Below, piece after piece: positions 43,204 to 63,184 of a stretch of DNA of 64,000 nt. The DNA lies in assembly GCA_041664365.1 (NCBI GenBank), contig JBAYKW010000003.1, positions 28,696 to 92,695 of the forward strand, written 5' to 3'. This DNA comes from Patescibacteria group bacterium (GTDB taxonomy: Bacteria; Patescibacteriota; Patescibacteriia; UM-FILTER-42-10). The notes beneath the pieces are model-generated. The model ran no database searches. It was not told where the DNA came from and saw nothing but the letters and a program-made list of their open reading frames with translations. Numbering within the stretch: the stretch's first letter is position 1; every line of letters begins with the position of its first letter. Made by a program: the position numbers and the translations under genes.

Positions 43204-45753
43204 ATGCGTAATGATATCAGCGCATTTAGATTAGGCAACATAATGACTAAAGTAGTTGTTATTTTTGTTTTTACTGCCGCCGTGTTGTCGGCGGTTTTTT
43301 ATTTAGGTAGGAGCGGTAATTTAATAGAAAAAACAAGAGCAACAGATTCATATGCTGAAATAGTACAGCCATATGTAGGAAGTCAGGTTATTGCACATAC
43401 TGATGCTATGGAAGGGTCTAATTATGAATGGACAATAAACGCTGAACCGGTCCAAAGCGGAACAGTCCCAACAACATTTCTTTCGCATTTTGACGGTGAT
43501 TTACGAACGATAACAGGCGAGGAGCCGATAACCAGCAGTTCTGTTACATATGAATCAGTGAAATTCGGCCAGGGTATGGTAGGAACAGCAGATTATCCGA
43601 TGACCGGCAATCTTGACGTTACAAAGGGTACACTTGATCTTTGGCTGACACTAAAAAAACCGCTGGACGATCCGGAGTTTGATAGTAGTCCGTATATTCT
43701 TTATTATCACAATTCCAGTACAGGTGATTCTTTTATAGTGAATGTGCATAATACCGATGTAATAAGTTTTACCATGTATGATTTTTCTGACGGATGGGAA
43801 TTGGCTGTTCAGGCCAGCACGAGCAACTATACAATCCCAGTAGGAGTACCTTTTCACTTTGTAGCAACATGGTCTGTCACGGATAAAGTGGCAAAAGTTT
43901 ATTTGAATGGTGAACAGGTATCACGCAGAGATTATGAAGCGGACCAGCACTTTCCGGAAATCGTTGTCGGCGCGGAAAATGTTATGATTGGAAATACAAA
44001 TGTTGTAATGGATGAGATCAGGGTTTCAAATGATGTATTATCAACAGATCAGATAAAAGATTCTTATGTCCGTGGCATGCCGTATTCAGAAAGTGATATC
44101 TATTACAACGGGATTGTTAGTGAAGGTGATACTGTAGAATTGAGCGTTACTAACGGTGGTATTCCTCAGACGGACAGTGCAACTGTCGCCGGACAAAAAA
44201 TTACTGTAACCAGCCCGGCGGGATATTTCATACTAAATACAGACACATTTACTGTCAGCTTTAATACACCTACCGTCATGACTTGTCATTATGGAGCTGT
44301 GCCGGACTCATACGCTAACCTACCGCAGGTTACAGAAGGGACGGGGACTTCACATACAATTACATATAATGTAGATACTATTGTCGAACAATTTCCGGTT
44401 GCTATCAAATGTCACGGGGTGGGCGACGAAGCTGATGATTACGCGTTCTTCCGGCGCTACCGTGTATTGCCTGAGCCGAAACTGACCTATCCTAAACTTT
44501 CAAAGATTTGGTGGGGTAATACAGTATTAGATTCAGAAGTCCCATACCTTGCTAAATTTGATTTTGTTAATACATCAAAGAGTAATATTACAAAACCCGG
44601 ACCGATTAAACAACTCAAAACATTAAATCCGAACCAAGTTGTCCTTGTTTATCAGGATATGATAGGCGTTCAGAATTATGGAGGTGTAGCATATCATTCT
44701 GAATCGGATCGCGTTTTGGAGTCTTGGCGTCTTCAAAGTTCTGAGGTTCCGGGTGATTTTTGCCGAAACCTTTATTATGCGGGTAATGATCTTTATAATC
44801 TTAATGTTAATGTTCCTTTTGGTGAGCAGAGTGCAGATCATACGGAGAAGGATTTAATTGATCGCCTTTCCTATTTTGATGGTATTTGGTGGGATGTGGT
44901 CGGACCGGATTTTTGGTTTTTGTATGATTATAACGGAAACCCGGCAAGTTATGTTGAAAATTGTGATTTTGATAACGACGGCATAGATGAAGATTTAAAC
45001 ATCACAGCAGATCGGCTGAAAGCACAGCAGATTTGGGCGAACGGTATTCATGATATAATGTTGCGTTCACGCCAGAAATTGGGACAGGAAGTATTGATGG
45101 TAGGCAACGGTAATGCATCTGTGCATTCCGACTTCAACGGAAAACATCTCGAACATTTTTTCACCCCCAGCACATTTTTACAATATTTTGATCCGAATAA
45201 CGTGCAGGGGTTTCTCTATTGGCAGAATAATTCAAAAGAGCCGAGAATGAATGATAATTTGTATAAAATTAGCGGTTCGTATGGTACTCAGTCATTCTAT
45301 AAGTCTATGCGATATGGCTTGACCGCAAGTCTCTTAGCCGGTGTTTATTTTGATCCAAACTCGGGAGCTGAAAATGTGAACAATACATGGTGGTTTGATG
45401 AATACTGGATCGATACGGAAACGGCTAGACCGACTGACATTCTTGAAACTGGTAGCGGATATCTCGGTGAACCGCAAGGGGACTATTATATGGTACAATC
45501 AAATGTGTACCGCCGTGACTTTGAAAACGGGATAGTCCTGCTTAATAATACTTCCGGATCATCTACCATTAACCTCGGCGGAACATACCGGTATCTGGAT
45601 GCGACGAACGGCGGACAAGACCCAGTCGCTAATCTGGGCGGTGAAACAGATTCAGTTACCATGAGTTGGTACGATGGGAGAATATTACTTAATCCTTTAC
45701 CGCCGCAAGACAGTACACCACCGGGGACAATTAACGATTTATATACTGAATAG
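43204..45753 (+). CDS. Tandem paralog (copy 2) of the LamG-domain protein
   Basis: Same length (849 aa), about 80% identical by eye, same leader and promoter. Confidence 0.6.
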   Translation: MRNDISAFRLGNIMTKVVVIFVFTAAVLSAVFYLGRSGNLIEKTRATDSYAEIVQPYVGSQVIAHTDAMEGSNYEWTINAEPVQSGTVPTTFLSHFDGDLRTITGEEPITSSSVTYESVKFGQGMVGTADYPMTGNLDVTKGTLDLWLTLKKPLDDPEFDSSPYILYYHNSSTGDSFIVNVHNTDVISFTMYDFSDGWELAVQASTSNYTIPVGVPFHFVATWSVTDKVAKVYLNGEQVSRRDYEADQHFPEIVVGAENVMIGNTNVVMDEIRVSNDVLSTDQIKDSYVRGMPYSESDIYYNGIVSEGDTVELSVTNGGIPQTDSATVAGQKITVTSPAGYFILNTDTFTVSFNTPTVMTCHYGAVPDSYANLPQVTEGTGTSHTITYNVDTIVEQFPVAIKCHGVGDEADDYAFFRRYRVLPEPKLTYPKLSKIWWGNTVLDSEVPYLAKFDFVNTSKSNITKPGPIKQLKTLNPNQVVLVYQDMIGVQNYGGVAYHSESDRVLESWRLQSSEVPGDFCRNLYYAGNDLYNLNVNVPFGEQSADHTEKDLIDRLSYFDGIWWDVVGPDFWFLYDYNGNPASYVENCDFDNDGIDEDLNITADRLKAQQIWANGIHDIMLRSRQKLGQEVLMVGNGNASVHSDFNGKHLEHFFTPSTFLQYFDPNNVQGFLYWQNNSKEPRMNDNLYKISGSYGTQSFYKSMRYGLTASLLAGVYFDPNSGAENVNNTWWFDEYWIDTETARPTDILETGSGYLGEPQGDYYMVQSNVYRRDFENGIVLLNNTSGSSTINLGGTYRYLDATNGGQDPVANLGGETDSVTMSWYDGRILLNPLPPQDSTPPGTINDLYTE

Positions 45754-47409
45754 ATGCATATGAATACAGTTTTAATGATTAAGAATAAGCCAAGAGTTCT
45801 GGTCAGAATTAATATTTATATTGCTGTTATAGCATTAGTATCAGCATTTATCGGTTTTGCGTATAGTATGTTGTATCCATACGGGAACCAGTCATATTTG
45901 CCAGAGGTCCAGGCGGGGTTTAGCGCTACATCAGCAAATTCAGTAACCATTAACTGGACTGCTCCGGGGGATGATAGTTTTTCCGGCACGGCAGTTGGCT
46001 ACGATATCCGTTATAGCACCCAGTCTATTAACGATTCTAACTGGACTGCTGCTTCGGTTGTTTCTGATGTTCCCGCGCCTTTAACTGCCGGTAGCGCGGA
46101 ATCATTTGTTGTAATGGGTCTGGCGCCAAATACAACGTACTATTTTGCAATTAAAACTGTCGATAATGAAGGTCTGTGGTCGGCGCTTTCAAATATTGCA
46201 TCGCACACAACAGACTGCGTGGAATCATGGACATGTTCTGTCTGGTCAGAATGCGTAAATGGAACTCAGTCCAGAACTTGCAGTGATTTAAACAACTGCG
46301 GAACACAGGAGGAAATTCCATATCTGACGAACTTGTGTACAGTTGAAATTCCACCGACAGAACCACCAACTGTTCCACCAACTGTGCCACCGGTGGATGA
46401 ACCTACTACACCGCCCAGTGGTGGTGACGAGCCTCAAATCCAGGAAAGCTATATCGTTGCTGCACCGAATCTGGGTGGAGGGCCGCAGGTAAGAATTTTT
46501 TCAAAAACCGGAAAATTATTGTCACAATTCTATGCCTATTCAACATCATTCCGCGGTGGAGTTAATGTTGCTGTAGACGATCTTGATAATGACGGAATTG
46601 ACGAAATTGTAGTCGGACCGGGGCCCGGGTATGAACCTAAAGTAAGAGTCTTTACCTGGAAGGGCAGGTTGCTTTATGAGTTTACCGCATACCAAGCGGG
46701 ATATCGCAATGGTGTGAAGGTTGCGATCGGAGATGTCGATGATAAAGGCGGAAAGGAAATAATTGTTTCTCCTGCATCCGGTGGCGGTCCGAACATAAGG
46801 ATATTCGGCAAACGTAACGGTACCTATAGTCCTACAATTGAGAATTTTTTCGCATACAATCAATGGTTGCGCGGGAGCTGGAATGTGGCGAGCGGTGATT
46901 TAGATAGGGATGGTCATTCCGATATCATTACGGCGCCGGGTAAATTAACCGGTGGTCCGCATGTCCGTATATTCCATTATGAAGGTAATAAAATCTGGCC
47001 GCATATTTTAGGATTCATGGCATATCCAACGAATTTCAGGGGAGGAGTAAATATAGCTGCCGGAGATCTAGTCGGAAACAGTGGAGATGAAATAATAACA
47101 GCGCCGGTTGCTGTCGGCGGACCATTTGTCAGAATATTTCGTCGTTTACCTGACGGTTCTATAGCTTTATACCGAAACGGATTCTTTGCCTATCATCCGG
47201 AATTCCGGGGAGGGGTGAGTTTGGCTACCGGAGATTTTAATTATGATGGTAAAGATGAGATCGTAACTGCCGTACAGTCCGGTGATCGGGCGGTGGTAAA
47301 GATTTGGAAAGGAATGGGCGAATATCCTCTTTACGAAGTTGTGGTTTTTCCAAACGAGATGCAAGCTGGTGTTAATATTGCTGTCGGCAAATTCTTTCTG
47401 CCACAGTAA
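45754..47409 (+). CDS. Membrane-anchored protein with a fibronectin-III-like domain and a seven-bladed FG-GAP/VCBS-type beta-propeller
   Basis: TM segment IYIAVIALVSAFIGFAYSML. Seven repeats of the form GGPxVRIF...Y...F.GGVNVA.GDLD.DG..EI. Confidence 0.6.
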   Translation: MHMNTVLMIKNKPRVLVRINIYIAVIALVSAFIGFAYSMLYPYGNQSYLPEVQAGFSATSANSVTINWTAPGDDSFSGTAVGYDIRYSTQSINDSNWTAASVVSDVPAPLTAGSAESFVVMGLAPNTTYYFAIKTVDNEGLWSALSNIASHTTDCVESWTCSVWSECVNGTQSRTCSDLNNCGTQEEIPYLTNLCTVEIPPTEPPTVPPTVPPVDEPTTPPSGGDEPQIQESYIVAAPNLGGGPQVRIFSKTGKLLSQFYAYSTSFRGGVNVAVDDLDNDGIDEIVVGPGPGYEPKVRVFTWKGRLLYEFTAYQAGYRNGVKVAIGDVDDKGGKEIIVSPASGGGPNIRIFGKRNGTYSPTIENFFAYNQWLRGSWNVASGDLDRDGHSDIITAPGKLTGGPHVRIFHYEGNKIWPHILGFMAYPTNFRGGVNIAAGDLVGNSGDEIITAPVAVGGPFVRIFRRLPDGSIALYRNGFFAYHPEFRGGVSLATGDFNYDGKDEIVTAVQSGDRAVVKIWKGMGEYPLYEVVVFPNEMQAGVNIAVGKFFLPQ

Positions 47410-47420
47410 AACAAAACAAT

Positions 47421-47909
47421 ATGAAAAATAATAAAGGATTTACTCTGTTAGAGTTGTTGGTTGTCGTGGCAATCATCGGTCTTATTTCTTCCATTGCTTT
47501 CGTAGCAATGCAAAACGCCCGCGCAGAGGCGCGCGATGCAAAAAGATTGGCTGATGTTCATGCAATAAGGAATGCACTGGAGCTTTATTATCACGATAAT
47601 GGATCTTATCCTGATCCATGGTGTATTGGTTTGACATCTGTCGCAGGCTGTAATTCATTTGTTGAGCCAAATAGCTGGATACCATCATTGATACCAAAGT
47701 ATATGCAGACACTACCTAATGATCCGTTGAACACAACAAATGATGAAACTAATGAACATTATTTATATTTTTATACACGATGGGCAGTAGATGAAAATGC
47801 ACCTCAACAATACTACCTCATATACAGAAGAGAAACGAAAGGTCAGGTAAGAGAATGCCCTGTTTTATGGGGTGGTAATTGGTCTTCGTTATGTGGAGGA
47901 ATAATTTAA
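47421..47909 (+). CDS. Type IV pilin/pseudopilin (prepilin-type N-terminal methylation motif)
   Basis: MKNNKGFTLLELLVVVAIIGLISSIAFVA. Confidence 0.8.
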   Translation: MKNNKGFTLLELLVVVAIIGLISSIAFVAMQNARAEARDAKRLADVHAIRNALELYYHDNGSYPDPWCIGLTSVAGCNSFVEPNSWIPSLIPKYMQTLPNDPLNTTNDETNEHYLYFYTRWAVDENAPQQYYLIYRRETKGQVRECPVLWGGNWSSLCGGII

Positions 47910-47989
47910 ATTTAGTAAACTAAGCATTTTTTCTAATTGCCTACAAATGGTATAATATAACAGCAATATAGGCTGTTTTTATTTATTAA

Positions 47990-49624
47990 ATGAATAGAAT
48001 GCCTGAAAAGAAAATTAAGCATATTAATAACCAAGATTCATGGATGCTGGCTGAAGACATCCCTGATATTGATTTGTTTTTTTCTCAAATTTGGTTATCC
48101 TGCCTTGCTAATGAGTTCGCCCGTCCGGGAGGATATGCCAATGAAAAAGTTATGACTATTTTCAGAGGCTACCATATGTGGTTCTATTTTGGCGAGGAAG
48201 ATTCATTCAAACAGGGTCAGCATCTAGTTGAAAGGTTTGTTAAAAACCTTCAGTTTGCAGCGGAAGCGAATGAAGAGATTGTAAAATGGTCTGACAAACT
48301 GCGCTATTTTGCGCATAATCTCCCGCAGGAGAATTTAGAAAAACTCACTAGAAAACAGTTATGGTTTTTTTATCAGAGACACGATGAAGTTCACACAAAA
48401 TATTATCAGTGGTACTGGCTTCCGGTTGCAGCCGACATGTTCCACGGAAATTTTACCGAAGAGATGAAAAAATATTTGAAGTCGATTGGGGTGGAAAAAG
48501 ATAAAATAAATGAATATCTGGTAATTTTAACTGCTCCCGAAAACAAGTCTCTAATCCAGATTGAACGTGAAGAATTTCTGACTATCGCGTCAAAAATCCA
48601 GAAAGACCCGTATCATAAAAAACTTTTCCAGAGATTATATCAGGAATTTATGGAGTACAATGGATTGCCAAATGGGATGGAGAATCATGCACCCGAATAT
48701 GAATTGGCTTTTGAAAAGAAGGTTGCAGATATAAAGGATAATATTAAGATGGAAATTCTGAAATTAATTCAGGATCACTACATTAAATACCATTATGTTA
48801 GATATATGTGGATTGGCCGTGACGATATCTATACATATGATTATTATCTCAAAGAGTTAGTGAAGCTGATTGGTGAAGACGTTAACTTCGGGGAAATATT
48901 GAAAAATGAAATCAATCAGCATAAAAATTTGATAACAAAAAAGAATGCGCTAATTAAAAAACTGAAGATTGGTAAGGATTGGAGGGTAATTTTAGCCGGT
49001 TGGTCAGAATTCATGGTAACTAAAATCCATGGCCGGTTCGCGCAAATTTACACAATCTACAACATGCAGCCGGTTTTAGGTGAAATTGCCAGAAGGCTGG
49101 ATATTTCACTCATGCAGGCAAGATTTATGATGAAATCAGAGGTCAGAGATGCGTTGATTGGGGGTAAGAAACCGGATAAGAAAACATTGCAAAAAAGGAC
49201 GAAATTCTGCGTGTATTATGTAGAAAAGGGAATTGAGAAAATATATACCGGCAATCAGGCAAAAAAAATGGCTGAAAAAACCACAATGACTGTTAATGAG
49301 GAAATCACAGAAATAAACGGACAATGCGGATGCGTGGGGAGAGGGAAAGGGAAGGTCAGATTGATAATCAGGGCTTCTGACATGGGAAAAATGAAAAACG
49401 GCGATGTTTTAGTTTCAATCGCAACTAATCCTGGCATAGTCGCGGCAATGAAAAAAGCTTCGGCAATCGTAACTGATCAGGGCGGGATTACTTCGCATGC
49501 GGCTATTATTGCCAGGGAACTGGGTATTCCATGCGTAATCGGCACAAAAATTGCGACAAAAGTATTCAAAGACGGAGATTTGGTGGAGGTGGATGCTACT
49601 AAAGGAATGGTGAGAAAATTGTGA
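47990..49624 (+). CDS. Paralog 1: unknown N-domain of about 420 aa fused to a C-terminal PEP-utilizing-enzyme mobile (phosphohistidine swivel) domain
   Basis: C-terminus [55 protein letters not shown]. Confidence 0.65.
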   Translation: MNRMPEKKIKHINNQDSWMLAEDIPDIDLFFSQIWLSCLANEFARPGGYANEKVMTIFRGYHMWFYFGEEDSFKQGQHLVERFVKNLQFAAEANEEIVKWSDKLRYFAHNLPQENLEKLTRKQLWFFYQRHDEVHTKYYQWYWLPVAADMFHGNFTEEMKKYLKSIGVEKDKINEYLVILTAPENKSLIQIEREEFLTIASKIQKDPYHKKLFQRLYQEFMEYNGLPNGMENHAPEYELAFEKKVADIKDNIKMEILKLIQDHYIKYHYVRYMWIGRDDIYTYDYYLKELVKLIGEDVNFGEILKNEINQHKNLITKKNALIKKLKIGKDWRVILAGWSEFMVTKIHGRFAQIYTIYNMQPVLGEIARRLDISLMQARFMMKSEVRDALIGGKKPDKKTLQKRTKFCVYYVEKGIEKIYTGNQAKKMAEKTTMTVNEEITEINGQCGCVGRGKGKVRLIIRASDMGKMKNGDVLVSIATNPGIVAAMKKASAIVTDQGGITSHAAIIARELGIPCVIGTKIATKVFKDGDLVEVDATKGMVRKL

Positions 49625-49767
49625 TAATATATTCATTCTATCGAGGTGTCCTGTACCACTAAATGGTACAGGACAACCCCGCACCCAAGGTGGTGCGGGG
49701 TAGACGCGACAAGGGGAGTTGTTAAAAAGATTTAAGGTTAATACATTTAATATAATTTATTTAAAAT

Positions 49768-50676
49768 ATGCCAGATCATTTTAAACCAGAACAACAATTA
49801 GCAAATCCAGAAAGAGAAAGGGAATATACTTCTAGAGTTTTACTTCATTTTTTTCGCCATGGAGAAAAGGAGTCTATCCCAGGTAGAACAAACGAAGAAC
49901 AGATGTTGACAGCCGCTGGCCGCCGTCAAGGTTTGGAAACTGGACTAATGAGACCGGAAGCTAAGCCATCAGCTATGGCCTTTGGTAGTGATATACCTAG
50001 ATCTCAAGAAATGGCCGGTTTTGACCTAGCCGGAGCTCAAAGACGAGAAGATATTAGTGGAGATGAATCATTGGATGAATTAAGGGATATATTAGACCAA
50101 GATATTAAAATAGGTACCAAATTAGCAGTAGATCCGCGACTGGGTTTTCATTATGACGATCCGGGATTATTAGCTGAGGCTACTAAAGCTTATAAAAATG
50201 GACAGGCATTAAAATTTGTTGTTGAGAATAGTGATGAAATAGCCAAAAATGCGGGTGATAACGATAGTACAACATATGCTAAATCAGCAGCTAATGTTTC
50301 AGAGATACTTAATAAGTATATGACAATTGCGTCCCGTTTTGATCAGATTGTCAGCGATGAGGATAAAAAAGAAAAATATAGTGATACGCTGGAGAGATTC
50401 ATGGGTTCGCATGCCGGTGTGATAGATGTTTTTTTATGTAAGGTAGTGGAAAAATTAAAAGGCGTGGAAGTGCGAAATAAATTAGTGCAAGCATTGAATA
50501 ATAACGGTTTTAATTTTGCTGAGGGTTTTGATATAGAAATTGATGTGATAAATGGTGAAACGCAAATGCGTATCAAGTATTCAAAACCAGAAGATGAACG
50601 CGGTGAAGCTTTTGAAATTGATGAGATGATTCCCAGGGAGATGCTAGAAGAAATGATGGAAGCGGGAGGAAAATAG
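49768..50676 (+). CDS. Histidine-phosphatase-superfamily (PGAM-like) protein, paralog 1
   Basis: RHG motif LLHFFRHGEKE with LTAAGRRQGLETG, and the distal motif GSHAGVI. Confidence 0.5.
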   Translation: MPDHFKPEQQLANPEREREYTSRVLLHFFRHGEKESIPGRTNEEQMLTAAGRRQGLETGLMRPEAKPSAMAFGSDIPRSQEMAGFDLAGAQRREDISGDESLDELRDILDQDIKIGTKLAVDPRLGFHYDDPGLLAEATKAYKNGQALKFVVENSDEIAKNAGDNDSTTYAKSAANVSEILNKYMTIASRFDQIVSDEDKKEKYSDTLERFMGSHAGVIDVFLCKVVEKLKGVEVRNKLVQALNNNGFNFAEGFDIEIDVINGETQMRIKYSKPEDERGEAFEIDEMIPREMLEEMMEAGGK

Positions 50677-50706
50677 TAATTTTATCAATCATTAAATAAA
50701 AATTTT

Positions 50707-52197
50707 ATGGCGGGAGCAGTAATAAGATCAGGAGAGTGGAGGATTAAGCCGTCCGGTAAATTACCAATTTTTTTGCGTTTTATGATTAACTCTAGCTTTA
50801 GCCATGAAATTGCCAATCAAGTTGGCTTTAAGAATCATATAGTAAATCGAGTTTATTTGAATCATATGATGTACTGGCCGGCAAAAGAATATGATGCTTT
50901 TGAAACAGAAATAATTAATAACTTAAAGCAGGATAATTATTGGCTTGATAACTATTGCAACAGAGAACTTAAAAATTCAGAAGAACTTTATAATTTAGGT
51001 TTAAAATTACAAAAAACTGATTGGTCAAAAAAAAGTAATTTAGAGATGAAAAAAACTTTAGATAGTCTGTTAAATAAATATAAATTGTTATCATGCTCAT
51101 GGTATGCACAGTACCCGATTGATATTTATTATGAAGATAGAATAGAGGAATTTTTGCTAAAATATATAAAAATATCCAACTCTGATTTTAGAAAATTAGT
51201 TTTGATTTTTACTGACCCTAAGGAAATGACTGAAGTAGCTGAAGAAAGGTGGAAATTAATAACAATCGCAAATAAATTTAAAAAGAATAAAGAAGATTTA
51301 AATAACTTATCAAAATCAGCAGACAATGATTTAAATAATCATTTAGATAGATTCGCTTATATCAATCGCGGTTTAGCTACCAGTAAGCCTTATACTAGAC
51401 AAGATATAATTGATAGGATAAAAGAGTCTTTGCATAGCAAAGAAGGTCTTAATAAATTGATCAATAATAGTTCGCCTGAAAAAGTAAAAGAGGATTATAA
51501 CTGGGCATTAAGTCAAATTAAACCAGAAGCTGATTTTAAACGTACAATTGAACAAGCTCGTTTACATTCCTATACTAGAAACAGAAGGGTAGAGGCTTTT
51601 TTTAGAGCCGACTTTGGAGCTAGTTTTATGTATCATGAAATTGCCAGAAGAAACAAATTCAACGAGGATTGGGTAATGGAATTATCTGTAGAGGAAATGT
51701 ATGGTGCTTTAGATGGTAAAATATTACCAGACAAGACCGAAATGCAACGTCGTTTTACCAACTATGCCATGGTTGTTGAAGATGCCAAAACAAAATTAGT
51801 TGTTGATCCTAAGGAAATAAAAAAGTTAGAAGAAAAATATAGTGTTGAGATTGTGGATTCTAATGAATTGCAAGGTAAAATGGCTAGTTTGGGCGGGATA
51901 ATCAGGGGGAGGGCCAAAATATGCTTAGACAAGAAAGATATTGGTAAAATAGAAAGAGGGGACATCTTGGTAGCTCAGTTTACTACGCCTGACTTTGTCC
52001 CAGCGATGGAAAAAGCTGCTGCGATTGTTGCTGATCAAGGCGGGCTATCTTCCCACGCCGCTATTGTTTCAAGAGAGCTGGGAGTGCCGTGCGTCATAGA
52101 TACTAAAAATGGTACTCGAATTATTAAGGACAATGATTTACTGGAGATCAATGCTCAAACAGGCTTAGTTAAAATATTAGAAAGAGCAAAAGAATAA
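50707..52197 (+). CDS. Paralog 2: unknown N-domain plus PEP-utilizing mobile domain
   Basis: C-terminus [49 protein letters not shown]. The N-domain shares the LTAP/TDP...E..L..IA motif with paralogs 1 and 4. Confidence 0.65.
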   Translation: MAGAVIRSGEWRIKPSGKLPIFLRFMINSSFSHEIANQVGFKNHIVNRVYLNHMMYWPAKEYDAFETEIINNLKQDNYWLDNYCNRELKNSEELYNLGLKLQKTDWSKKSNLEMKKTLDSLLNKYKLLSCSWYAQYPIDIYYEDRIEEFLLKYIKISNSDFRKLVLIFTDPKEMTEVAEERWKLITIANKFKKNKEDLNNLSKSADNDLNNHLDRFAYINRGLATSKPYTRQDIIDRIKESLHSKEGLNKLINNSSPEKVKEDYNWALSQIKPEADFKRTIEQARLHSYTRNRRVEAFFRADFGASFMYHEIARRNKFNEDWVMELSVEEMYGALDGKILPDKTEMQRRFTNYAMVVEDAKTKLVVDPKEIKKLEEKYSVEIVDSNELQGKMASLGGIIRGRAKICLDKKDIGKIERGDILVAQFTTPDFVPAMEKAAAIVADQGGLSSHAAIVSRELGVPCVIDTKNGTRIIKDNDLLEINAQTGLVKILERAKE

Positions 52198-52201
52198 GAC
52201 A

Positions 52202-53593
52202 ATGCTAAAAGATAAAGCTAGAATTAATTTGGATATCAAATTCATTGCCGACAAAACGTCGGGGATCTCCTGTGAACCATTTTTGGCTTCTATACCACTC
52301 AAAGTAGTTGAAGCTAACAATTATCGGCATTTAATTAAATTCCCTTTTTATGGTTTAAGTATCAATTGTCGTCAGAAGTATGCCGACGAATATATAGATG
52401 AAGCTAAATATGAAGGAGAGACTAATAAGCTATTAGTTTATGTAAGAAAAAATGGTCCTAAATATATACAAGATATTGCTACTTTAATTACTCAAGAAGC
52501 CAAGGATTTTAAGAAATATTCAGATAAGCTCATAGCCAAAATACCTAAACTTAGTAATCGCCAATTAGTTGACCAGATGACGTCTTATGTTAATCACTAT
52601 GCTTATCATTTTGGCTTAGGGGGGCCAACTTTTGTTTATGAAGCTATTTTATCGGCTCGGATCACTGAATCACTGTTTTTCCGGTACCAAGAGGCGCCGC
52701 AAATTATTAACCAGCTTTTGGCTGGTAAACACCAAAGTTTCATGGTGGATAGTGAAAAACTACTTTTAAAAATCAAGCAAGAAAAAAGTAAAAGACAAAA
52801 AGATGCTTTAATAAAAAAGTATATTAAAGAATTTTACTATATGGGCCCGGCTTATATCTACACAAAACCTTTGAATGCAAGTAGAGTCCTTAAGTTGGCA
52901 GCTACTGCTATGGCATCCAAACATCAATCATTTGAAAAAATAAAAGGTTTTAAACTTTTACCTGAGGAAAAATTAATTATCGATATTTTAAAACCGACGG
53001 AAATAATTCGTGATAAAAGAAAGTATATCAATCATATTGGTTCTTACACTTTATCTAGATTCTTAGATGAAGCAGTCAAAAGGTCTGGTGTGCCAATGAG
53101 TTTAGCTGTTAAGTCTTTCTGGTTTGAATACAGTGATTTAGTTTTTTCACCACAGATAATTAGGAGGAAACTGCAAAAAAGGAGTAAGGTCTCACTTGTG
53201 GCAGTTGATAATAATTTAATGTATCTAGAGGGAGATAGGATAAAAAACAGATTGCCGGTAAATAAAGGACAGCGATCTTTCATTGGTATTTCAGCATGCC
53301 AAGGAAAAACTACTGGTAAGGTACGCGTAATTCTGGGACCGTCAGATTTTAGAAAATTTAAGATAGGAGAGATACTGGTAACTGATATGACCAGGCCGGA
53401 TTTCATGCCAATTATCCGTCATGCTAGAGCCATTATTACAAATGAGGGAGGGCTTACTTCTCACGCGGCTGTTATTTCCAGGGAGCTTAATATTCCCTGC
53501 GTACTGGGCACTAAAGTTGCGACCAGAATATTAAAGGACGGAGATTTCGTGGAAGTAGACGCAAATCGCGGTATAATAAAAAAATTAAAATAG
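52202..53593 (+). CDS. Paralog 3: unknown N-domain plus PEP-utilizing mobile domain
   Basis: C-terminus GEILVTDMTRPDFMPIIRHARAIITNEGGLTSHAAVISRELNIPCVLGT. Confidence 0.65.
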   Translation: MLKDKARINLDIKFIADKTSGISCEPFLASIPLKVVEANNYRHLIKFPFYGLSINCRQKYADEYIDEAKYEGETNKLLVYVRKNGPKYIQDIATLITQEAKDFKKYSDKLIAKIPKLSNRQLVDQMTSYVNHYAYHFGLGGPTFVYEAILSARITESLFFRYQEAPQIINQLLAGKHQSFMVDSEKLLLKIKQEKSKRQKDALIKKYIKEFYYMGPAYIYTKPLNASRVLKLAATAMASKHQSFEKIKGFKLLPEEKLIIDILKPTEIIRDKRKYINHIGSYTLSRFLDEAVKRSGVPMSLAVKSFWFEYSDLVFSPQIIRRKLQKRSKVSLVAVDNNLMYLEGDRIKNRLPVNKGQRSFIGISACQGKTTGKVRVILGPSDFRKFKIGEILVTDMTRPDFMPIIRHARAIITNEGGLTSHAAVISRELNIPCVLGTKVATRILKDGDFVEVDANRGIIKKLK

Positions 53594-53597
53594 TTTT

Positions 53598-55103
53598 ATG
53601 AAATATGTAGAAGGTCTGCTGAAAAAAAATCTTAAAAAATGGAGTGGTAAAAAATGGTACCATCAGCGGTTTGATGGAGCGCCATATTTAATCCATACAA
53701 TAGCAGAAGCGGAAATAACTGTAGATATCAAAAAGAAAAAGGGAACGCATAATGCTGTCCATTATTGCTTTTTTAATGATGGCAAAGCTGACTGGTATAT
53801 TGAAATAGAAGATATGAAGAGGGTCTACTCGGCTGTATTGAAGGCCGGTAAAAAAAATTATCAACTGGGTCGTACTATGATTTCTGCTTGGCAGCCACAG
53901 CAAGATAGTTTTTACAAAAAGTGTTTGGAAATTGATAAAGTCAACTTAAAAATTCTAAAAAATCAAGAGTTAATAAAGTTACATGATGAGTTTCTGGAAA
54001 TAATCTTACATAAAAACAGTTGTAGTTCTATTATCGATGGATTCGCTTTAGGAACGGATGAAATTGTAGCCGAAATGATACAAAAAATATACGATGTCAA
54101 TCCAATAAATAAAAAATTAAGATTTGCGGAAGTATTTTCTATTCTGACTGCTCCAGTTCATTTGTCTTTTATTAATGAAGCGGAAATAGAGCTCTTGCAA
54201 ATTGCAAAGGCTGTTAAGAGGGGAGAAAATAAAAACAAATTATTGAAGGAGTATCAGAAAAAATATTTCTGGATTAGAAACAATTATATTGATGCCAACA
54301 TACTGACATTCAATCATTTCGCGAATGAATTGAAAAAGATTCTTTCACAAAAGACCAATATTGATAAAAAGATAAATAATATTAAAAATACACCGACCAG
54401 AAGTAGGCTGTTAAAAGATAAATTAATTGTAGAATTGAAAATAAGCAAGGAATTAAAATTTTTATTAAAAACATCAGAGGATTTTACATATTGGCAAGAC
54501 GAAAGAAAGCGGGGAACATTCTGGATTGCGCATTATACCTATTTGATATTAAAAGAGATTTGTCGTCGTACGGGTATTACTCCGGAAGAAATAAAATATT
54601 TATCACCACGCGAAGTAAGTGAAATATTTAAAAATAAGGTAAATAGAAAATTATTACAACAAAGAATCAAAGCTTGTGTTTTTTATTGGGATTTAAATGG
54701 ACACGAAGCAGTGGTCGGTAAGGATTATAAAAATGTGATGCATGAAATATTAGGAAATAAAAAGTTATCAGATGTTGATGATTTTCGAGGGCTGACTGCC
54801 TGCATGGGAAAGGCACGCGGTCAGGTTAGAATAGTCCATAGTGCTAGGGAAGTTAATAAAGTTGAGCAAGGTGATATATTAGTTGCTGTTATGACTAGGC
54901 CGGATTATGTACCGGCAATGAAGAAAGCGGCGGCTATTATAACTGATGAGGGAGGCTTAACTTGCCACGCAGCTATAATATCGCGGGAGTTAAATATCCC
55001 TTGTATTATCGGGACTAAGATTGCCACCAAAGTTCTCAAAGATGGTATGGAAGTAGAGGTCAATGCAAATCATAGTTGGGTAAAAATTATCAAAAAAATA
55101 TGA
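53598..55103 (+). CDS. Paralog 4: unknown N-domain plus PEP-utilizing mobile domain
   Basis: C-terminus GDILVAVMTRPDYVPAMKKAAAIITDEGGLTCHAAIISRELNIPCIIGT. Confidence 0.65.
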   Translation: MKYVEGLLKKNLKKWSGKKWYHQRFDGAPYLIHTIAEAEITVDIKKKKGTHNAVHYCFFNDGKADWYIEIEDMKRVYSAVLKAGKKNYQLGRTMISAWQPQQDSFYKKCLEIDKVNLKILKNQELIKLHDEFLEIILHKNSCSSIIDGFALGTDEIVAEMIQKIYDVNPINKKLRFAEVFSILTAPVHLSFINEAEIELLQIAKAVKRGENKNKLLKEYQKKYFWIRNNYIDANILTFNHFANELKKILSQKTNIDKKINNIKNTPTRSRLLKDKLIVELKISKELKFLLKTSEDFTYWQDERKRGTFWIAHYTYLILKEICRRTGITPEEIKYLSPREVSEIFKNKVNRKLLQQRIKACVFYWDLNGHEAVVGKDYKNVMHEILGNKKLSDVDDFRGLTACMGKARGQVRIVHSAREVNKVEQGDILVAVMTRPDYVPAMKKAAAIITDEGGLTCHAAIISRELNIPCIIGTKIATKVLKDGMEVEVNANHSWVKIIKKI

Positions 55104-55117
55104 TTTAGGAAATTGAA

Positions 55118-56509
55118 ATGAATAGTAAAGCAAACAAATATAATTGGAAAAAATTGTGGGCAAGAAATTATACCCCATTTATGATGGAGTCATTTATTCA
55201 TGTTTTTCAAAAAACAGCCAATTTAAATATGTCTAATAATAAACTAGTTGTCCCGGATGGTAAGCTCTATGCGATTTATTTTGAAGAAAAGGAATTTGGA
55301 CAACTGACTGAAAATTATAAACGTTTGCTTCTGAAGAAAGACATAAAAGACTTTGCAGTTGCTTATGAACAGTCGTTTAAAAATTTTAATAATTGGTCTA
55401 AGAAAATTACTGATAGAGATTTTAGCAAACTTACTAATCAGCAGTTAGCTCGTTTTATCAAAGTCCTTCATAAAAAACTCATCATATTTTCCGAGCAGCA
55501 ATTTTGCGCTTTTCTGGTTTTAGAAGGTATGGGTCGAGAAATTGAGCGTATTTTTGCTGAGCAGCCTGAAATTTTGCATGCCATAGGTACTCCCTACCGC
55601 TTTACCAAAATAGTAAAAGCAAGGGTTGAATTACTGAAATTAAAAACGAGAGGAAAAGTAACAAACAAAGATTTACAAAATTATATTCGTCGAAATTCCT
55701 GGCTTTCAGTTTACCAATTTACTGACAATTTACTGACAGTCGATAATGTTAAAGAAGAATTATCTGGGATAAAACATTCTCAGACCGAATTAAAACGTCT
55801 AATCACTAACCAAAAAAAAGATTTAAAGCAATACAAAGTATTTGTAAAAAATCTTAAGGACAAAAAACTAAAAAAGATGGTGGCGATAGTTCATGCTTTT
55901 GCCTATCTAAAAGAAATGCGTGACGATTATAGACGTCATGCTTATTACTATTATGCTGGATTTTGGCAAGAAATTAGCAAGAGGTTGAGTATTTTGTTCA
56001 CAGAAACAAATTATTTGGTATCTGAAGAGCTACAAGAAGTATTAATGGGATCAAAAAAAATAAACTATAAGAAATTGGTAAAAGAAAGAAAAAATAGTTA
56101 CGCACTCGTTCTTAAAGAAGGCAAGCTAAGTATTTATAGTGGTAAAAAAGCAAATACAATAACTGCGTTGATTAAACCAATAGCACACAGTAAGGAATTA
56201 TCGGGTTATACTGCCTGCCAAGGGAAAGCTAAGGGCAGGGTAAATATAATTTCACATCATGGTGAACTGAAAAAATTTAAAAAAGGAGATATTTTAGTAA
56301 CTAGCATGACTCATCCTGAGTTTATAAGTATAATGAAAAAAGCATCGGCAATTGTTACTGATGAAGGGGGAATTACTTGCCATGCTGCTATTGTGTCTAG
56401 AGAATTAGGGATTCCTTGTATAATTGGCACGAAAATTGCCACCAAAGTATTTAAAGACGGGGATATGGTGGAAGTGGATGCAACGAAAGGAATAGTAAAA
56501 AAGCTGTAA
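55118..56509 (+). CDS. Paralog 5: unknown N-domain plus PEP-utilizing mobile domain
   Basis: C-terminus [49 protein letters not shown]. Confidence 0.65.
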
Positions 56510-56545
56510 TAATAGAAAATATAATTAATTAATTTAAGAATTATT

Positions 56546-57481
56546 ATGCCAGAACCCGGATTTAAACCAAAACAGCCCGGTCTTCAACCAGAACAACAAG
56601 AGCGAAAAGAGTGGGGTCGCAACGTAGCGCTTACATTAAAAATAATGCGTCATGGGGATCGTGACAAACAAAAAAACTTAAGTGAATATGGCCGAAAGGA
56701 AACCCGTCAGCGTGCAAAGGATTTAGGCATTAAACCGGATGATTTTGATGCAATCAAAGCAATCGGTTCAAGTGCCGGTCCGGAAAGAGAAATAGAAGTA
56801 AATGGCAAAAAAGTTTCTATGGGCAGGGCTTTAGAAACTGCCCATATCTATGCGGACGAGCTGGATAGTGAAAATGAATTTGTGACTCGTGTAAATGATT
56901 TGTTGAATTTTGAAACGATCAAAACGCCGGCTCCTCATGACCATACTGCGGTTTATAATTCTAATCTGCCGGAAAATTATGATGATTTAGATGAAGTAGC
57001 GAAGGCGAAGGCGGCGGAAGATGCGCAGATCGCTACAGTTAATTACGTATTCAGCTTGCATAATCCGGAAGCGGAAGCATGGAAAAGGGAACAGGCAGGT
57101 GCTTTTGCTTATTTGGTGGAGCATTATCAAAAACTAGTAAAAAAATTAAAAAATAATTCAAGAGTATTAATACCCGCCGGCAGTCATGGCCCAACTATTG
57201 AAATTTTACTTCAACAGGCTTTAGTCATTAAGAAAGAAGACGGCACAGAACAGGTTGGCTTTGACAATATTGATGATATTGGCGGGCCTTCGCAGCCTTC
57301 TGATTCTTATAATATTGAAATTGTTACTGATGAAAATGGTGAATTCCAGGATTTAGTGGTGACCTTTGATGATCCAGACAGACCGCAATTTGAAATGCGG
57401 TTGGACGGGGATAGAATAAGAGAGCTTGCCGAATTTTATGAAGAACTTCATCCTGTGGAAAGATATAACCCAGGGGGATAA
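56546..57481 (+). CDS. Histidine-phosphatase-superfamily (PGAM-like) protein, paralog 2
   Basis: LKIMRHGDRD with LSEYGRKETRQRAKDLG, and the distal motif GSHGPTIE. The N-terminus is paralogous with 49768-50676 (MP..FKP.QQ). Confidence 0.5.
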   Translation: MPEPGFKPKQPGLQPEQQERKEWGRNVALTLKIMRHGDRDKQKNLSEYGRKETRQRAKDLGIKPDDFDAIKAIGSSAGPEREIEVNGKKVSMGRALETAHIYADELDSENEFVTRVNDLLNFETIKTPAPHDHTAVYNSNLPENYDDLDEVAKAKAAEDAQIATVNYVFSLHNPEAEAWKREQAGAFAYLVEHYQKLVKKLKNNSRVLIPAGSHGPTIEILLQQALVIKKEDGTEQVGFDNIDDIGGPSQPSDSYNIEIVTDENGEFQDLVVTFDDPDRPQFEMRLDGDRIRELAEFYEELHPVERYNPGG

Positions 57482-57516
57482 ATTCAGAATGACAGAGAGT
57501 ATTTAAAAACAAAAAA

Positions 57517-57542
57517 CTCGGCCAGATCAGCCGGGTTTTTTT
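57517..57542. terminator. Weak bidirectional terminator between convergent genes
   Basis: Short GC hairpin cggc-cagatca-gccg, flanked by an A-run and a T-run. Confidence 0.35.
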
Positions 57543-57555
57543 AATTTGGTTTATT

Positions 57556-57927
57556 CTATTGCTTTGGTGCAGAGTTAAGAATATTGGAAATCAACTTTTT
57601 AATATCATCTATATGGATATTGTCCTTTTGCAGGAAATATTTGACACCTAAAGCTTTAACTTTTTCTTCGTTACCGTCTTGGCCTAGAGATGAAAGGACA
57701 ATAACAGGTATCGTTGATTCTTTATTTTGTTTTAAGAAATCAAAACCCCCCATCACTGGCATCATAATATCCAGCATAATTACGTCCGGCTGGAATTCTT
57801 TTACCAGATCCAAACCTGCTTGCCCATTATCCGCTGTCCTGACATCGTACCCTTCAGGAACAAGGGATGATTTAATAACTTGTTGAATAGCGCTATCATC
57901 ATCAATTACTAAGATTTTTTTTGTCAT
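57556..57927 (-). CDS. Standalone CheY-like response-regulator receiver domain
   Basis: KILVIDDDSAIQQVI...DVIMLDIMMPVMGGFDFLK...PVIVLSS. Confidence 0.85.
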   Translation of the reverse strand: MTKKILVIDDDSAIQQVIKSSLVPEGYDVRTADNGQAGLDLVKEFQPDVIMLDIMMPVMGGFDFLKQNKESTIPVIVLSSLGQDGNEEKVKALGVKYFLQKDNIHIDDIKKLISNILNSAPKQ

Positions 57928-57933
57928 AATAAT

Positions 57934-59682
57934 TTATTCTAAAGGTAAGATAAAGAAAAATGTACTACCCTTATCTTCAGTTGATTCAACGCTAACCAGT
58001 CCGCCGTGCGCTTCAATGATTCCTTTCGCAATAACCAGACCTAAACCGGTTCCTTTTGCCTGGGTCTTTTTTTGCCCTTCCGCCTGCTCAAATTTATTAA
58101 ACAACTTTTTAATCTGGTCTTTTCGAATACCAGAGCCATTGTCTGTTACTGCACAAATTATGACATCTTTTTCTCGTTTTTGCAAAACCTCAGATGAATT
58201 TGAAATAAACCATTTGATTCCCGCCTGCTTCGCTTTGCTTTCTATGTCCTCATCTTTTTTCAGAAGCAATGTTTGAACTTTCACGACTCCTTTTTCTTCC
58301 GTGAATTTAATGGCATTGGAAAGTAAATTGTTTAGAACTTGAATTATCTCTTTTTCATCAAATGGAACCTGTTCAATATCCGGTCCCCAGTAAGAATTTA
58401 AAACAATATTTTTTTCACTTGCTAAACTTTGGAAAAAATTGATTCTTTCTTCAATAACTCTTTTTAAATCTCCCTTTGACTTAGTGACAATAAATTTACC
58501 CGCTTCCAGCTTGGCAACATCCAACAAATCGTTAACCAGTTCTAAAATGTTAGTTGTACTGCCGTGGATCATTTTAGCGGATTGTAAAAACTGGTCTTTC
58601 GGCATTTTTTTATCCTGCAGCATTTCGGAAATCAACCGAATGCCGTTTAAAGGAGACCGTAAATCGTGCACCATCATGTTGGTAAAGTCTTCTTTGACTT
58701 TTTCCAGTTCCTTATCATGGGTTATGTCGTGCAGAATAATTACGGCGCCGAGTGTCTCACTGTTTTTATCTTTAACCGGTGAAAACAAAATCCGGATATA
58801 TCGGTGTTGGATGTATGTTTCTTCGATTACTTCCTGCCGATTCAATTTAATACATTCTTCCAGTTTTGTCCTGAAGTCTACTTTTCCTTCAAAAGCTTCG
58901 ATTATGTCAAATATGGATGTTTCTTTATTCTCGATACCTAGAAGATCCTTAACCTTGGGATTTGTGACATAAACCCTGTTGTCTTTATCAATCATTAGGA
59001 CTCCGTCAGCCATACTGACTACCATGGCGTTAAGCTTGCTTTGCTCCGAGTCTAATACATCCTGCAGACGTGTTACGGCATTGGATGCTTGCGCGGTTAT
59101 CTTATACAGAATAGTCATTTCATCTTCCTTATATAGTCCGGTTTTGGTGCTTGATACATTTAATATTCCCACTACTTTGTTGCCAACAGTTAATGGGATA
59201 TTAAAAAATGAGCTCAATGGCTCATTATTATCATCATCCAAGATGGTACCGGCAATTACTTCTTCGATTGTTCTATTCTGATAATTCTGATCTGTCAGGA
59301 CTGATAGTGCTGCTACCATTTTTCCCTTTACATCTTCCACGAATTTAGGACTGACGCTCTCTTCAACTTCACACTTGAAAAGCAATTCCTTCTTTTGAGT
59401 ATCTTCCAAAATGTAAGAGGTAGTGGAATAATCAATCAGTTCTTTTAACGATCCGGTGATAATATCGGCGATTCTCTGGGTGTTTAAAGAATACCCTGCC
59501 CTTTCCCCGATTTCTTTAAGTATGGAAAGTTCATACATGCGCCGGTTATTTTCTGATTCTCTTTTTTCACTTTCAGCTTTTAATGTGCCTCTTAATTTTC
59601 TGATATAAACGCAAAAACTGACTATAACCGCAATGATTACAATCGAAAAAACAAATATCACTGATACATTCGCTTGATCCAT
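57934..59682 (-). CDS. Membrane-anchored sensor histidine kinase: TM, GAF/PAS-like region, HisKA, HATPase_c
   Basis: H-box MMVHDLRSPLNGI; N, G1 and G2 boxes (LLSNAIKFT, VTDNGSGI, GTGLGLVIAKG). Confidence 0.85.
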   Translation of the reverse strand: MDQANVSVIFVFSIVIIAVIVSFCVYIRKLRGTLKAESEKRESENNRRMYELSILKEIGERAGYSLNTQRIADIITGSLKELIDYSTTSYILEDTQKKELLFKCEVEESVSPKFVEDVKGKMVAALSVLTDQNYQNRTIEEVIAGTILDDDNNEPLSSFFNIPLTVGNKVVGILNVSSTKTGLYKEDEMTILYKITAQASNAVTRLQDVLDSEQSKLNAMVVSMADGVLMIDKDNRVYVTNPKVKDLLGIENKETSIFDIIEAFEGKVDFRTKLEECIKLNRQEVIEETYIQHRYIRILFSPVKDKNSETLGAVIILHDITHDKELEKVKEDFTNMMVHDLRSPLNGIRLISEMLQDKKMPKDQFLQSAKMIHGSTTNILELVNDLLDVAKLEAGKFIVTKSKGDLKRVIEERINFFQSLASEKNIVLNSYWGPDIEQVPFDEKEIIQVLNNLLSNAIKFTEEKGVVKVQTLLLKKDEDIESKAKQAGIKWFISNSSEVLQKREKDVIICAVTDNGSGIRKDQIKKLFNKFEQAEGQKKTQAKGTGLGLVIAKGIIEAHGGLVSVESTEDKGSTFFFILPLE

Positions 59683-59697
59683 GAGTCCAGCTGTAAT

Positions 59698-59973
59698 TTA
59701 TTGTTTATTTTCGATTACAACAGAAGGATATTTTGCCAGTAATGGTTCCATTGTCTTTTTAACAATTAATCCGGACAGCGCGACATATTCATCAATTAAT
59801 CTTTGTAATGCCACCTGTGGATCGCCGTTGATTTCAGTTACTTCACCGTCAGCGCTGATTGCCAATTCTGTAACATTTTTTGCTTTCATGATCGCAATAT
59901 CCGGACCTAAGATGACAATTTGCTTTTTTATCATCTCGCTCATTATATTTTTATATTCTTCTCCGTTTGCCAT
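59698..59973 (-). CDS. Small hypothetical protein of 91 aa, upstream of the histidine kinase in the same operon-like run
   Basis: ORF only; 15-nt gap to the kinase start. Confidence 0.4.
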   Translation of the reverse strand: MANGEEYKNIMSEMIKKQIVILGPDIAIMKAKNVTELAISADGEVTEINGDPQVALQRLIDEYVALSGLIVKKTMEPLLAKYPSVVIENKQ

Positions 59974-59997
59974 TTTTTTAATGTTAATGATTTTTTA

Positions 59998-60324: not shown

Positions 60325-60335
60325 AAATTTATTAG

Positions 60336-60662: not shown

Positions 60663-60891
60663 TGAATATTACGTTATTTGTGTGAATACCATCTTATTGT
60701 ACCATAAGTTAGCAAAAAAATCAAGTGGAATCAACTATTTATTATATGTACTGATTGTATGGTTATTGAGTATTTGGCAATCTAATTTATCCGCAACACT
60801 TCGAGAAATTATTCAAGCTAGAATATGAGTTACTATTCACACGGTATGTTGTTAATTATTATCACTTATGCTATAATATAAAAGATTTTTC

Positions 60892-61839: not shown

Positions 61840-61840
61840 A

Positions 61841-63181: not shown

Positions 63182-63184
63182 AAT

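Follow-up and report, generated by a model that had tools for sequence, protein, structure and literature searches.

A 64,000-nucleotide stretch of the genome of a Patescibacteria group bacterium (contig JBAYKW010000003.1, positions 28,696 to 92,695), hereafter the window, carries an operon encoding five divergent proteins that each end in a phosphohistidine swivel domain, referred to here as carriers, and, further downstream, a standalone ATP-grasp gene. Together, these genes probably encode an ATP-dependent, one-to-many (hub-and-spoke) two-component dikinase of the type represented by rifampin phosphotransferase (RPH) and the split HpeHI enzymes, in which the carriers would all be charged by a shared ATP-grasp protein. 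This reading rests on the conservation of catalytic residues on both halves of the system, on the presence of at most one ATP-grasp per array in related loci, and on polyproteins in which one ATP-grasp domain is joined to several carrier modules.

The operon (47990-57481) comprises seven co-directional genes, separated by gaps of 4-143 bp and bracketed by terminator-like hairpins (Table 1). Five of the seven are carriers, and the other two (49768-50676 and 56546-57481) encode predicted phosphatases. The initial annotation, made from the letters of the sequence, had described five tandem, co-directional genes of 463-544 amino acids (aa), each with a C-terminal swivel. All five open reading frames (ORFs) are present and co-directional, and each has a C-terminal match to the Pfam family PF00391 (PEP-utilizers; PEP, phosphoenolpyruvate). 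However, they are not strictly contiguous, as the gene for a 302-aa protein lies between paralogs 1 and 2. PF00391 is the single above-threshold Pfam domain in every carrier, with scores of 84-93 bits against a cut-off of 23.1 (E about 1e-24 to 1e-27). As had been proposed, neither the ATP-grasp domain PPDK_N (PF01326) nor a PEP-binding TIM barrel has a Pfam match in any of the five carriers.

The catalytic histidine of the swivel lies in a GGxxxH(A/G)A motif in all five carriers and is invariant in 162 of 162 single-module relatives. The longer motif that had been quoted around this residue holds less uniformly, as paralog 2 departs from it (GGLSSH...ELGVPCVIDT). A threonine or serine two residues ahead of the histidine, as in PEP synthase, is found in 134 of the 162 relatives. 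Between paralogs, identity in alignment is 47-64% for the swivels but only 17-23% for the N-terminal 358-439 residues, and BLASTP often barely detects one N-domain with another, which bears out the strong divergence originally noted. A motif that had been considered common to the N-domains, LTAP/FTDP...E..L..IA, is present in paralogs 1, 2, and 4 and degenerate in paralogs 5 (IGTP) and 3 (LLAG); its proline is retained in 121 of the 162 relatives. The possibility that these genes are truncated PEP synthase pseudogenes can be dismissed, given their intact ORFs, conserved residues, and orthologs in many genomes. Weak matches to UDP-GlcNAc 2-epimerase (PF02350) in paralog 5 and in longer homologs are sub-threshold, all overlap the swivel, and are taken to be spurious. 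The GC content is 0.32-0.35 across the array (positions 50000-56000), compared with 0.40-0.46 in most of the window.

The nature of the N-domain is indicated by profile searches and structural modelling. Searches against NCBIfam and the Protein Data Bank (PDB) show that homology to RPH and its 'PRK06241' relatives extends beyond the swivel, with family positions 177-461 aligning to RPH residues 564-866. An AlphaFold2 model of paralog 5, built with 64 homologs, was of high confidence (predicted local distance difference test score 94.5; predicted template modelling score 0.91) and shows the swivel preceded by an N-domain that is largely made of helices and includes a small sheet. When the model was compared with the PDB using Foldseek, the top six matches were RPH entries (E 1.7e-13 to 1e-10; template modelling score up to 0.60 over ~550 columns), and all non-RPH matches covered the swivel only. 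Since only RPH structures match the model beyond the swivel, the carrier N-domain is predicted to be an RPH-type substrate-binding domain, although its sequence identity to RPH is only ~15%. A cryptic ATP-grasp in the N-domain, which would have made each carrier self-sufficient and spoken against the initial annotation, is ruled out by the fold of this model.

In RPH, residues R666 and E667, together with K670, are essential for the second phosphotransfer (PMC4844700). In the profile alignment, K265-E266 of paralog 5 fall on R666-E667, and across the 162 relatives this second site takes the form [Q/R/K]-[D/E]-x-R-K. An acidic residue at 266 occurs in 121 relatives, R268 in 139, a basic residue at 269 in 125, and R324 in 152. 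Within the window, paralogs 3 and 4 have the full motif and paralog 5 has K-E-x-R, while the motif is incomplete in paralogs 2 and 1 (Table 1). Some related loci encode short carriers of ~330-370 aa (L058 2364-3377, L077 10170-11246, L080 9311-10324) that lack the middle of the N-domain, corresponding to profile positions ~145-275. The missing region includes the surroundings of the R-K helix motif, and the function of these proteins may differ. One further homolog (P0048) has a weak N-terminal domain resembling HAD-IIB sugar phosphatases.

The other half of the proposed enzyme is encoded at 60892-61839. Its product consists of PPDK_N alone (E 6e-99, 332 bits) and retains K22, R114, T133, and E295, the equivalents of K22, R117, T136, and E297 in RPH. 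No other window ORF of 90 aa or more encodes an ATP-grasp of the PPDK_N type, in line with the initial annotation. No Pfam match to, or homolog of, the C-terminal, PEP-binding TIM barrel domain of pyruvate phosphate dikinase (PPDK; PF02896) was found among the window ORFs.

The grasp gene starts 4.4 kb downstream of the carriers. Four opposite-strand genes lie between it and the operon, encoding a response regulator, a GAF-PAS histidine kinase, and two small membrane proteins. The latter (59998-60324 and 60336-60662, minus strand) are tandem 108-aa paralogs that are 60% identical and have no Pfam match. On the other side, a 446-aa Lys/Glu-rich protein (61841-63181) starts 2 bp past the grasp stop codon, and a PrgI-family, type IV secretion-like protein (63185-63622) comes next. 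The grasp gene may be co-transcribed with these two genes. In a Falkowbacteria locus (L075, 28-5109), the order is carrier, grasp, homolog of 61841-63181, and PrgI. This is the order of window positions 55118-63622 without the 3.4-kb block at 57556-60662 that holds the two-component genes and the two small membrane proteins. Because L075 keeps the same order without this block, the block looks inserted, and the separation of grasp and carriers in the window is likely to be secondary.

Homologs of paralog 5 number in the thousands and are named only 'PEP-utilizing enzyme' or 'phosphohistidine swiveling domain-containing protein'. They occur in Doudna-, Kerfeld-, Shapiro-, Falkow-, Nealson-, and Uhrbacteria, among others, as well as in Woese-, Nano-, and Micrarchaeota. 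A profile of the N-domain alone recovered 4,374 clusters at 50% identity (E <= 1e-3) among 1.84 billion protein representatives, and many of these clusters are 900-2648 aa long with two to four N-domains. The genomic context was surveyed in 83 related loci, in which ORFs, called from the first start codon, were scanned with hidden Markov models (HMMs) built from the window proteins. Because resemblance to paralog 5 was the basis for selecting these loci, and contig ends truncate many of them, the frequencies given here are indicative rather than unbiased. Taxa were taken from record titles, and some records are titled as third-party annotation (TPA) 'Gammaproteobacteria' or 'Methanosarcinales' bins.

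Arrays of carriers are widespread among bacteria of the candidate phyla radiation (CPR) and archaea of the DPANN group, and they are common in this sample, with at least two modules in 53 loci, at least four in 30, and at least eight in nine. A PPDK_N grasp was detected in 30 of the 83 loci, either as a standalone gene within 10 kb (21 loci) or fused (nine loci), and never twice in one locus. The co-occurrence expected for a separate grasp and its carriers is thus observed. Where present, the grasp almost always directly adjoins the array. For example, a Doudnabacteria locus (L003) has four carriers, a phosphatase, a further carrier, and one more gene before the grasp, and a Woesearchaeota locus (L004) has nine carriers and then the grasp. 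Two overlapping loci on Nealsonbacteria contig MHMM01000017.1 (L027 and L016) together contain 13 single-module carriers and one fragment, followed by a single grasp. At ~20 kb, this is the larger counterpart of the ~9.5-kb system in the window, and such systems would take up ~1-3% of coding capacity if the genomes are near 1 Mb, an assumed size. In addition, several loci contain uninterrupted polyprotein ORFs in which one N-terminal PPDK_N grasp precedes two to eight modules of substrate domain plus swivel (Table 1). The window grasp is 52-66% identical to grasp genes or domains beside arrays in other CPR loci, including fused ones. Co-occurrence, polyproteins, and the L075 gene order together support the modular architecture of one grasp and many carriers that the initial annotation had put forward.

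Individual carriers can be traced across distant lineages. In terms of N-domain identity, the ortholog of paralog 2 in L037 reaches 65%, paralog 4 has orthologs with 51-54% identity in the DPANN-type loci L041, L006, and L004, and paralog 1 has one with 49% identity in a Nanoarchaeia locus (L014). Since these orthologs (49-65%) are far closer than the paralogs within one genome (17-23%), the duplications are old and the copies have been retained as distinct orthogroups. The low GC content of the array, together with the fact that the N-domains of paralogs 1 and 4 have their closest orthologs in DPANN metagenome-assembled genomes (MAGs), suggests that arrays have been transferred between CPR bacteria and DPANN archaea. 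Fragments of N-domains and swivels lie between intact carriers in some loci (L038 2699-4211 and 6044-6319; L016 8302-8664), which suggests birth-and-death turnover within arrays.

The two remaining operon genes, which were absent from the initial annotation, are paralogous (32% identity). In Pfam searches, the 302-aa protein scored below threshold (His_Phos_1, 13.6 bits versus 21.7) and the 311-aa protein had no match. A profile of the family likewise found no match among PDB sequences even at E 10. The assignment came from a structural model of the 311-aa protein, which has the histidine phosphatase superfamily fold. In 38 homologs of this protein, R35-H36-G37, R94, E97, G212, and H214 do not vary, and the RHG and GSH motifs are present in both window paralogs. 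Based on this fold and the invariant RHG, R, E, and H residues, both proteins are predicted phosphatases with an intact catalytic core. The 311-aa protein has ~60 homolog clusters, all from Patescibacteria where named, and a few are labelled 'histidine phosphatase family'. Phosphatases of the window type occur within the arrays of 10 related loci. Both window copies also carry a conserved N-terminal tail (MPxxxFKPxQ...PE..ER) that is predicted to be disordered.

The closest functional precedents are two-component dikinases. PpsAB (phenylphosphate synthase), CreHI, and HpeHI are characterised 1:1 systems whose subunits do not assemble into a stable complex (PMC12167813), and the Hpe cluster carries its own phosphatase, HpeD (PMC9618137). 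The domain partition is the same as that seen here: a grasp-only 'I' subunit, an 'H' subunit consisting of an RPH-type substrate domain and a C-terminal swivel histidine, and no TIM barrel. By analogy, the window enzyme would be expected to convert ATP to AMP and inorganic phosphate (Pi), with the beta-phosphate passing to the substrate. As in those systems, the complex would be transient, and their pathway phosphatase has a likely parallel in the phosphatase genes of the operon, although HpeD is a HAD enzyme and the window proteins have a histidine-phosphatase fold. In contrast, the H and I genes of the known systems are adjacent and 1:1, whereas in the window the ratio is 5:1 with a separation of 4.4 kb, and relatives have 2-13 H per I or are fused at up to 8:1. 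The known H subunits are also longer (~600-640 aa, against 463-544 aa here) and ~45% mutually identical, and they come from degraders of aromatic compounds rather than from CPR or DPANN symbionts. HMMs of the PRK08296 series, which describe PpsA/HpeH-type proteins, align only to the last 100-120 carrier residues, that is, the swivel, and score 54-101 bits against cut-offs of 578-730. HpeH and RPH have a methionine two residues before the histidine, where the carriers have the threonine or serine of PEP synthase. An archaeal PEP synthase (8a8e) is also a closer match to the swivel and grasp than are RPH and 9goj. The latter, a chain of 387 aa whose deposited name is 'phosphoenolpyruvate synthase', is taken here to be the crystal structure of HpeI.

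RPH itself (PDB 5fbs/5fbt/5hv1; PMC4844700) is the only solved structure that matches the N-domain, and it shares with the carriers the order of substrate domain and swivel and, with the variation between paralogs noted above, the R-E-x-x-K helix motif; with the separate grasp, it shares its catalytic residues. However, RPH is a single 867-aa chain (ATP-grasp, rifampin-binding domain, swivel) with its grasp fused 1:1, while here the grasp is a separate gene. Against the RPH equivalog HMMs NF041857 (cut-off 999) and NF000283 (cut-off 1700), the carriers reach 43-72 bits and the grasp 292 and 208. The likeness to PEP synthase and PPDK lies in the swivel and grasp, which are nearest in sequence to 8a8e (E 4e-47 and 3.5e-74), and the GGxT(S/C)H motif includes the regulatory-site threonine. 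The system nevertheless lacks the TIM barrel (PF02896), and its substrate domain has a different fold and is N-terminal to the swivel. Scores against the PEP synthase equivalogs TIGR01418 (cut-off 740) and NF005057 (cut-off 598) are 105-134 bits for the carriers, over the swivel only, and 319-330 for the grasp. Judged by sequence, neither carriers nor grasp belong to any of these curated families. The flavonoid phosphate synthetase YvkC and the PigC/RedH/HapC proteins show that the same scaffold has been adapted to many acceptors, but all are single-chain enzymes with one module, and they form no arrays or multi-swivel polyproteins.

The initial annotation had regarded the split, multi-paralog arrangement as undescribed. 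Because split dikinases (PpsAB, CreHI, HpeHI) were already known, the novelty is confined to the multi-paralog aspect, namely the one-to-many architecture of 2-13-carrier arrays and polyproteins. In the open-access literature, no account of such arrays, or of polyproteins with several swivels, was found for CPR or DPANN organisms, an absence that is not proof.

From this homology and gene context, we infer the following course of reaction. The ATP-grasp protein would bind ATP, and the swivel histidine of any of the five carriers would then attack the beta-phosphate. AMP would leave, the gamma-phosphate would be released as Pi, and phosphohistidine would remain on the carrier. The charged swivel would return to its own N-domain, where the [Q/R/K]-[D/E]-x-R-K helix motif is expected to position the phosphate for transfer to a bound small molecule. 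The five N-domains represent old orthogroups that have each been conserved separately, so the carriers most likely differ in the substrate that they phosphorylate. Like HpeD of the phenolic pathway, the two histidine phosphatases most likely strip phosphate from a product or from a later intermediate. Resetting of phosphorylated carriers is a less likely role for them.

Several observations weigh against this scheme. The grasp gene lies outside the carrier operon, 3.4 kb past the terminator and beyond four opposite-strand genes, and it abuts a type IV secretion system (T4SS)-like gene set (61841-63181, PrgI). A grasp was found in only 30 of the 83 related loci within the DNA fetched, and one locus (L034) has 10 carriers and no grasp in 21 kb. 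The second-site motif is incomplete in paralogs 1 and 2. Placing kinases and phosphatases in one operon creates a possible futile cycle unless there is an unseen intermediate step, and the operon contains no enzyme for such a step. Lastly, HpeH alone can shuttle phosphate between substrates (PMC12167813), so some carriers might act without a grasp.

Genes that accompany arrays in related loci provide leads to the substrates. PTA_PTB genes lie in or abut arrays, 0-37 bp from core genes, in five DPANN-type loci (L004 18541-19515; L006 1917-2891; L013 7098-8102; L024 3-650; L041 853-1860), and may hint at acyl-phosphate chemistry. They do not mark one type of carrier. Because the PTA-adjacent carriers of these loci are only 21-28% mutually identical, PTA appears to accompany arrays in general. 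Small CTP_transf_like/FAD_syn nucleotidyltransferases sit directly beside arrays in three loci (L039 12538-12927; L008 9045-9458; L002 12874-13347), and a fusion of EamA and riboflavin kinase does so in another (L053 7448-8740), making a link to cofactor salvage possible. Other genes in or abutting arrays encode HAD phosphatases (L037, L049), a second histidine-phosphatase-like family (L035, L007, L025), and DUF5674 proteins, with TrmB-type regulators nearby. Collectively, these partners point, if weakly, to small-molecule metabolism involving phosphoesters, acyl-phosphates, and nucleotidylated cofactors rather than to resistance. A search for riboswitches as clues to ligands found, with Rfam, only tRNAs in the window and seven array loci.

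The same enzymology could instead serve defence, with the carriers forming a set of resistance kinases by which antibiotics or phenolic xenobiotics from hosts or neighbours are inactivated, as rifamycins are by RPH and flavonoids by YvkC. RPH is, after all, the only structural match of the N-domain, the small molecules on which characterised relatives act are all hydrophobic or aromatic (rifampin, phenols, flavonoids, a prodigiosin precursor), and the birth-and-death turnover visible in L038 and L016 is typical of defence repertoires. We nonetheless consider a defensive role unlikely. Paralog orthogroups persist in distant CPR lineages and in DPANN archaea with N-domains still 49-65% identical, which is a better fit to fixed metabolites than to changing xenobiotics, and the genes found with arrays (phosphatases, PTA_PTB, HAD, and nucleotidyltransferase genes) are not those of efflux or resistance. 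A dedicated phosphatase would reverse an inactivating phosphorylation, the carriers score far below the cut-offs of the RPH models, and 1-3% of a ~1-Mb genome would be a heavy cost. As for defence against phages, PADLOC returned no match for nine proteins besides one meaningless 16-bit score.

It is more doubtful still that the carriers are independent of the ATP-grasp and that the grasp belongs to some other process. They would then be charged by PEP through a TIM-barrel protein encoded elsewhere, by acetyl-phosphate, or by a phosphorylated metabolite, and would act as phosphotransferases or transphosphorylases. Such independence would account for the position of the window grasp outside the operon and for the 53 of 83 loci in which none was found in the DNA fetched. 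It has a precedent in HpeH, which alone moves phosphate from 4-phosphoacetophenone to acetovanillone (PMC12167813), and a potential source of donors in the acyl-phosphate-making PTA_PTB genes that are translationally coupled inside arrays at five loci. However, polyproteins join one grasp to two to eight modules, and the grasp is almost always immediately beside the array where it is present. All of the grasp catalytic residues examined are retained, and neither the window nor the array loci yielded a PEP-binding TIM barrel, bar one ordinary PPDK in L014. A still more remote idea, to which we give very little credence, is that the system runs mainly in reverse or as a relay, either regenerating ATP from AMP and Pi with scavenged high-energy phospho-donors or passing phosphate from carrier to carrier in a signalling or regulatory phosphorelay, with the histidine phosphatases acting on phosphohistidine in the manner of SixA. 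In some anaerobes, PPDK works to form ATP (PMC5371819). Energy is scarce in CPR and DPANN organisms, which take up nucleotides from outside, and the threonine or serine two residues before the histidine is the regulatory site of PEP synthase and PPDK. On thermodynamic grounds, though, reversal requires donors with energies like that of PEP, and ordinary phosphoesters would be insufficient. Moreover, no receiver or output domains are present, and conservation of the motif equivalent to the residues that hold the product phosphate in RPH points to the binding of a small-molecule acceptor.

A large share of microbial diversity belongs to CPR bacteria and DPANN archaea, most of whose genes lack an assigned function. 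If one grasp does charge many carriers, this would be a new organisation for dikinases, in which a shared, E1-like charger serves interchangeable substrate modules. It would also likely provide a window onto the metabolites that symbionts take from their hosts, and a ready-made toolbox of small-molecule kinases for biocatalysis. As to its biological role, we tentatively prefer the idea that an organism nearly devoid of biosynthesis uses it to capture or activate scavenged metabolites irreversibly. A broader conjecture, which we hold a little less likely again, is that CPR and DPANN organisms share a modular phosphorylation machine, exchanged between the domains, with one grasp charger and up to 13 substrate-specific carriers that are free or fused (up to 3761 aa). 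Paired with dedicated histidine phosphatases, such a machine could be the main route by which these organisms trap and activate many host-derived metabolites. Its conversion of ATP to AMP and Pi would make this trapping irreversible and of high affinity, and it might replace conventional salvage kinases.

Table 1. Features of the carrier operon and the ATP-grasp gene in the window, and polyproteins in related loci
Feature	Position	Strand	Remarks
Terminator-like hairpin	47959-47977	+	6-bp stem, T-run; ends upstream pilin gene; 5' boundary of carrier operon
Carrier paralog 1, 544 aa	47990-49624	+	Predicted RPH-type substrate-binding N-domain plus phosphohistidine swivel; His503, codon 49496-49498; second site K-I-H-G-R, most diverged
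Histidine-phosphatase-fold protein 1, 302 aa	49768-50676	+	Between paralogs 1 and 2; RHG at residue 30, GSH at 213; fold predicted from model of its paralog
Carrier paralog 2, 496 aa	50707-52197	+	His450, codon 52054-52056; motif variant GGLSSH; second site R-N-R-R-V
Carrier paralog 3, 463 aa	52202-53593	+	His421, codon 53462-53464; second site R-D-K-R-K
Carrier paralog 4, 501 aa	53598-55103	+	His457, codon 54966-54968; second site Q-D-E-R-K, the family consensus; most widespread orthogroup
Carrier paralog 5, 463 aa	55118-56509	+	His422, codon 56381-56383; second site K265-E266-M-R268; chosen for modelling
Histidine-phosphatase-fold protein 2, 311 aa	56546-57481	+	After paralog 5; invariant R35-H36-G37, R94, E97, G212, H214
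Terminator-like hairpin, strong, bidirectional	57511-57541	+	12-bp stem and T-run; closes seven-gene operon
Promoter-like site	60849-60877	+	TTGTTA-17-TATAAT, extended -10 TG; just 5' of ATP-grasp gene; consensus match only
Standalone PPDK_N ATP-grasp, 315 aa	60892-61839	+	Presumed shared nucleotide-binding 'I' component
Polyprotein, locus L044	974-12259		3761 aa, 8 swivels; Woesearchaeota MAG
Polyprotein, locus L032	6140-12124		1994 aa, 4 swivels
Polyprotein, locus L065	5234-9433		1399 aa, 3 swivels
Polyprotein, locus L035	384-4319		2 swivels
Polyprotein, locus L056	7967-11668		2 swivels
Polyprotein, locus L055	6995-10459		2 swivels

Elsewhere in the window, a 3128-aa ORF with a single PA14 domain (19645-29031) precedes one of 1310 aa that has no Pfam match (29044-32976). 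Both presumably encode giant surface proteins, which are typical of CPR genomes. A placement among the CPR/Patescibacteria is also what the relatives of the carrier, phosphatase, and grasp genes, the type IV pilin, PrgI, and salvage enzymes encoded in the window point to. A 348-aa protein of the APH phosphotransferase family (34438-35484), with an aminoglycoside/choline-kinase-like fold, is a conventional small-molecule kinase. Closer to the carrier operon, tandem duplicate genes (40548-43097 and 43204-45753) encode proteins of 849 aa that contain Laminin_G_3 and GHL15 (putative glycosyl hydrolase-like) domains. Next come the genes for an FG-GAP/fn3 protein (45754-47409) and for a protein resembling type IV pilins (47421-47909).

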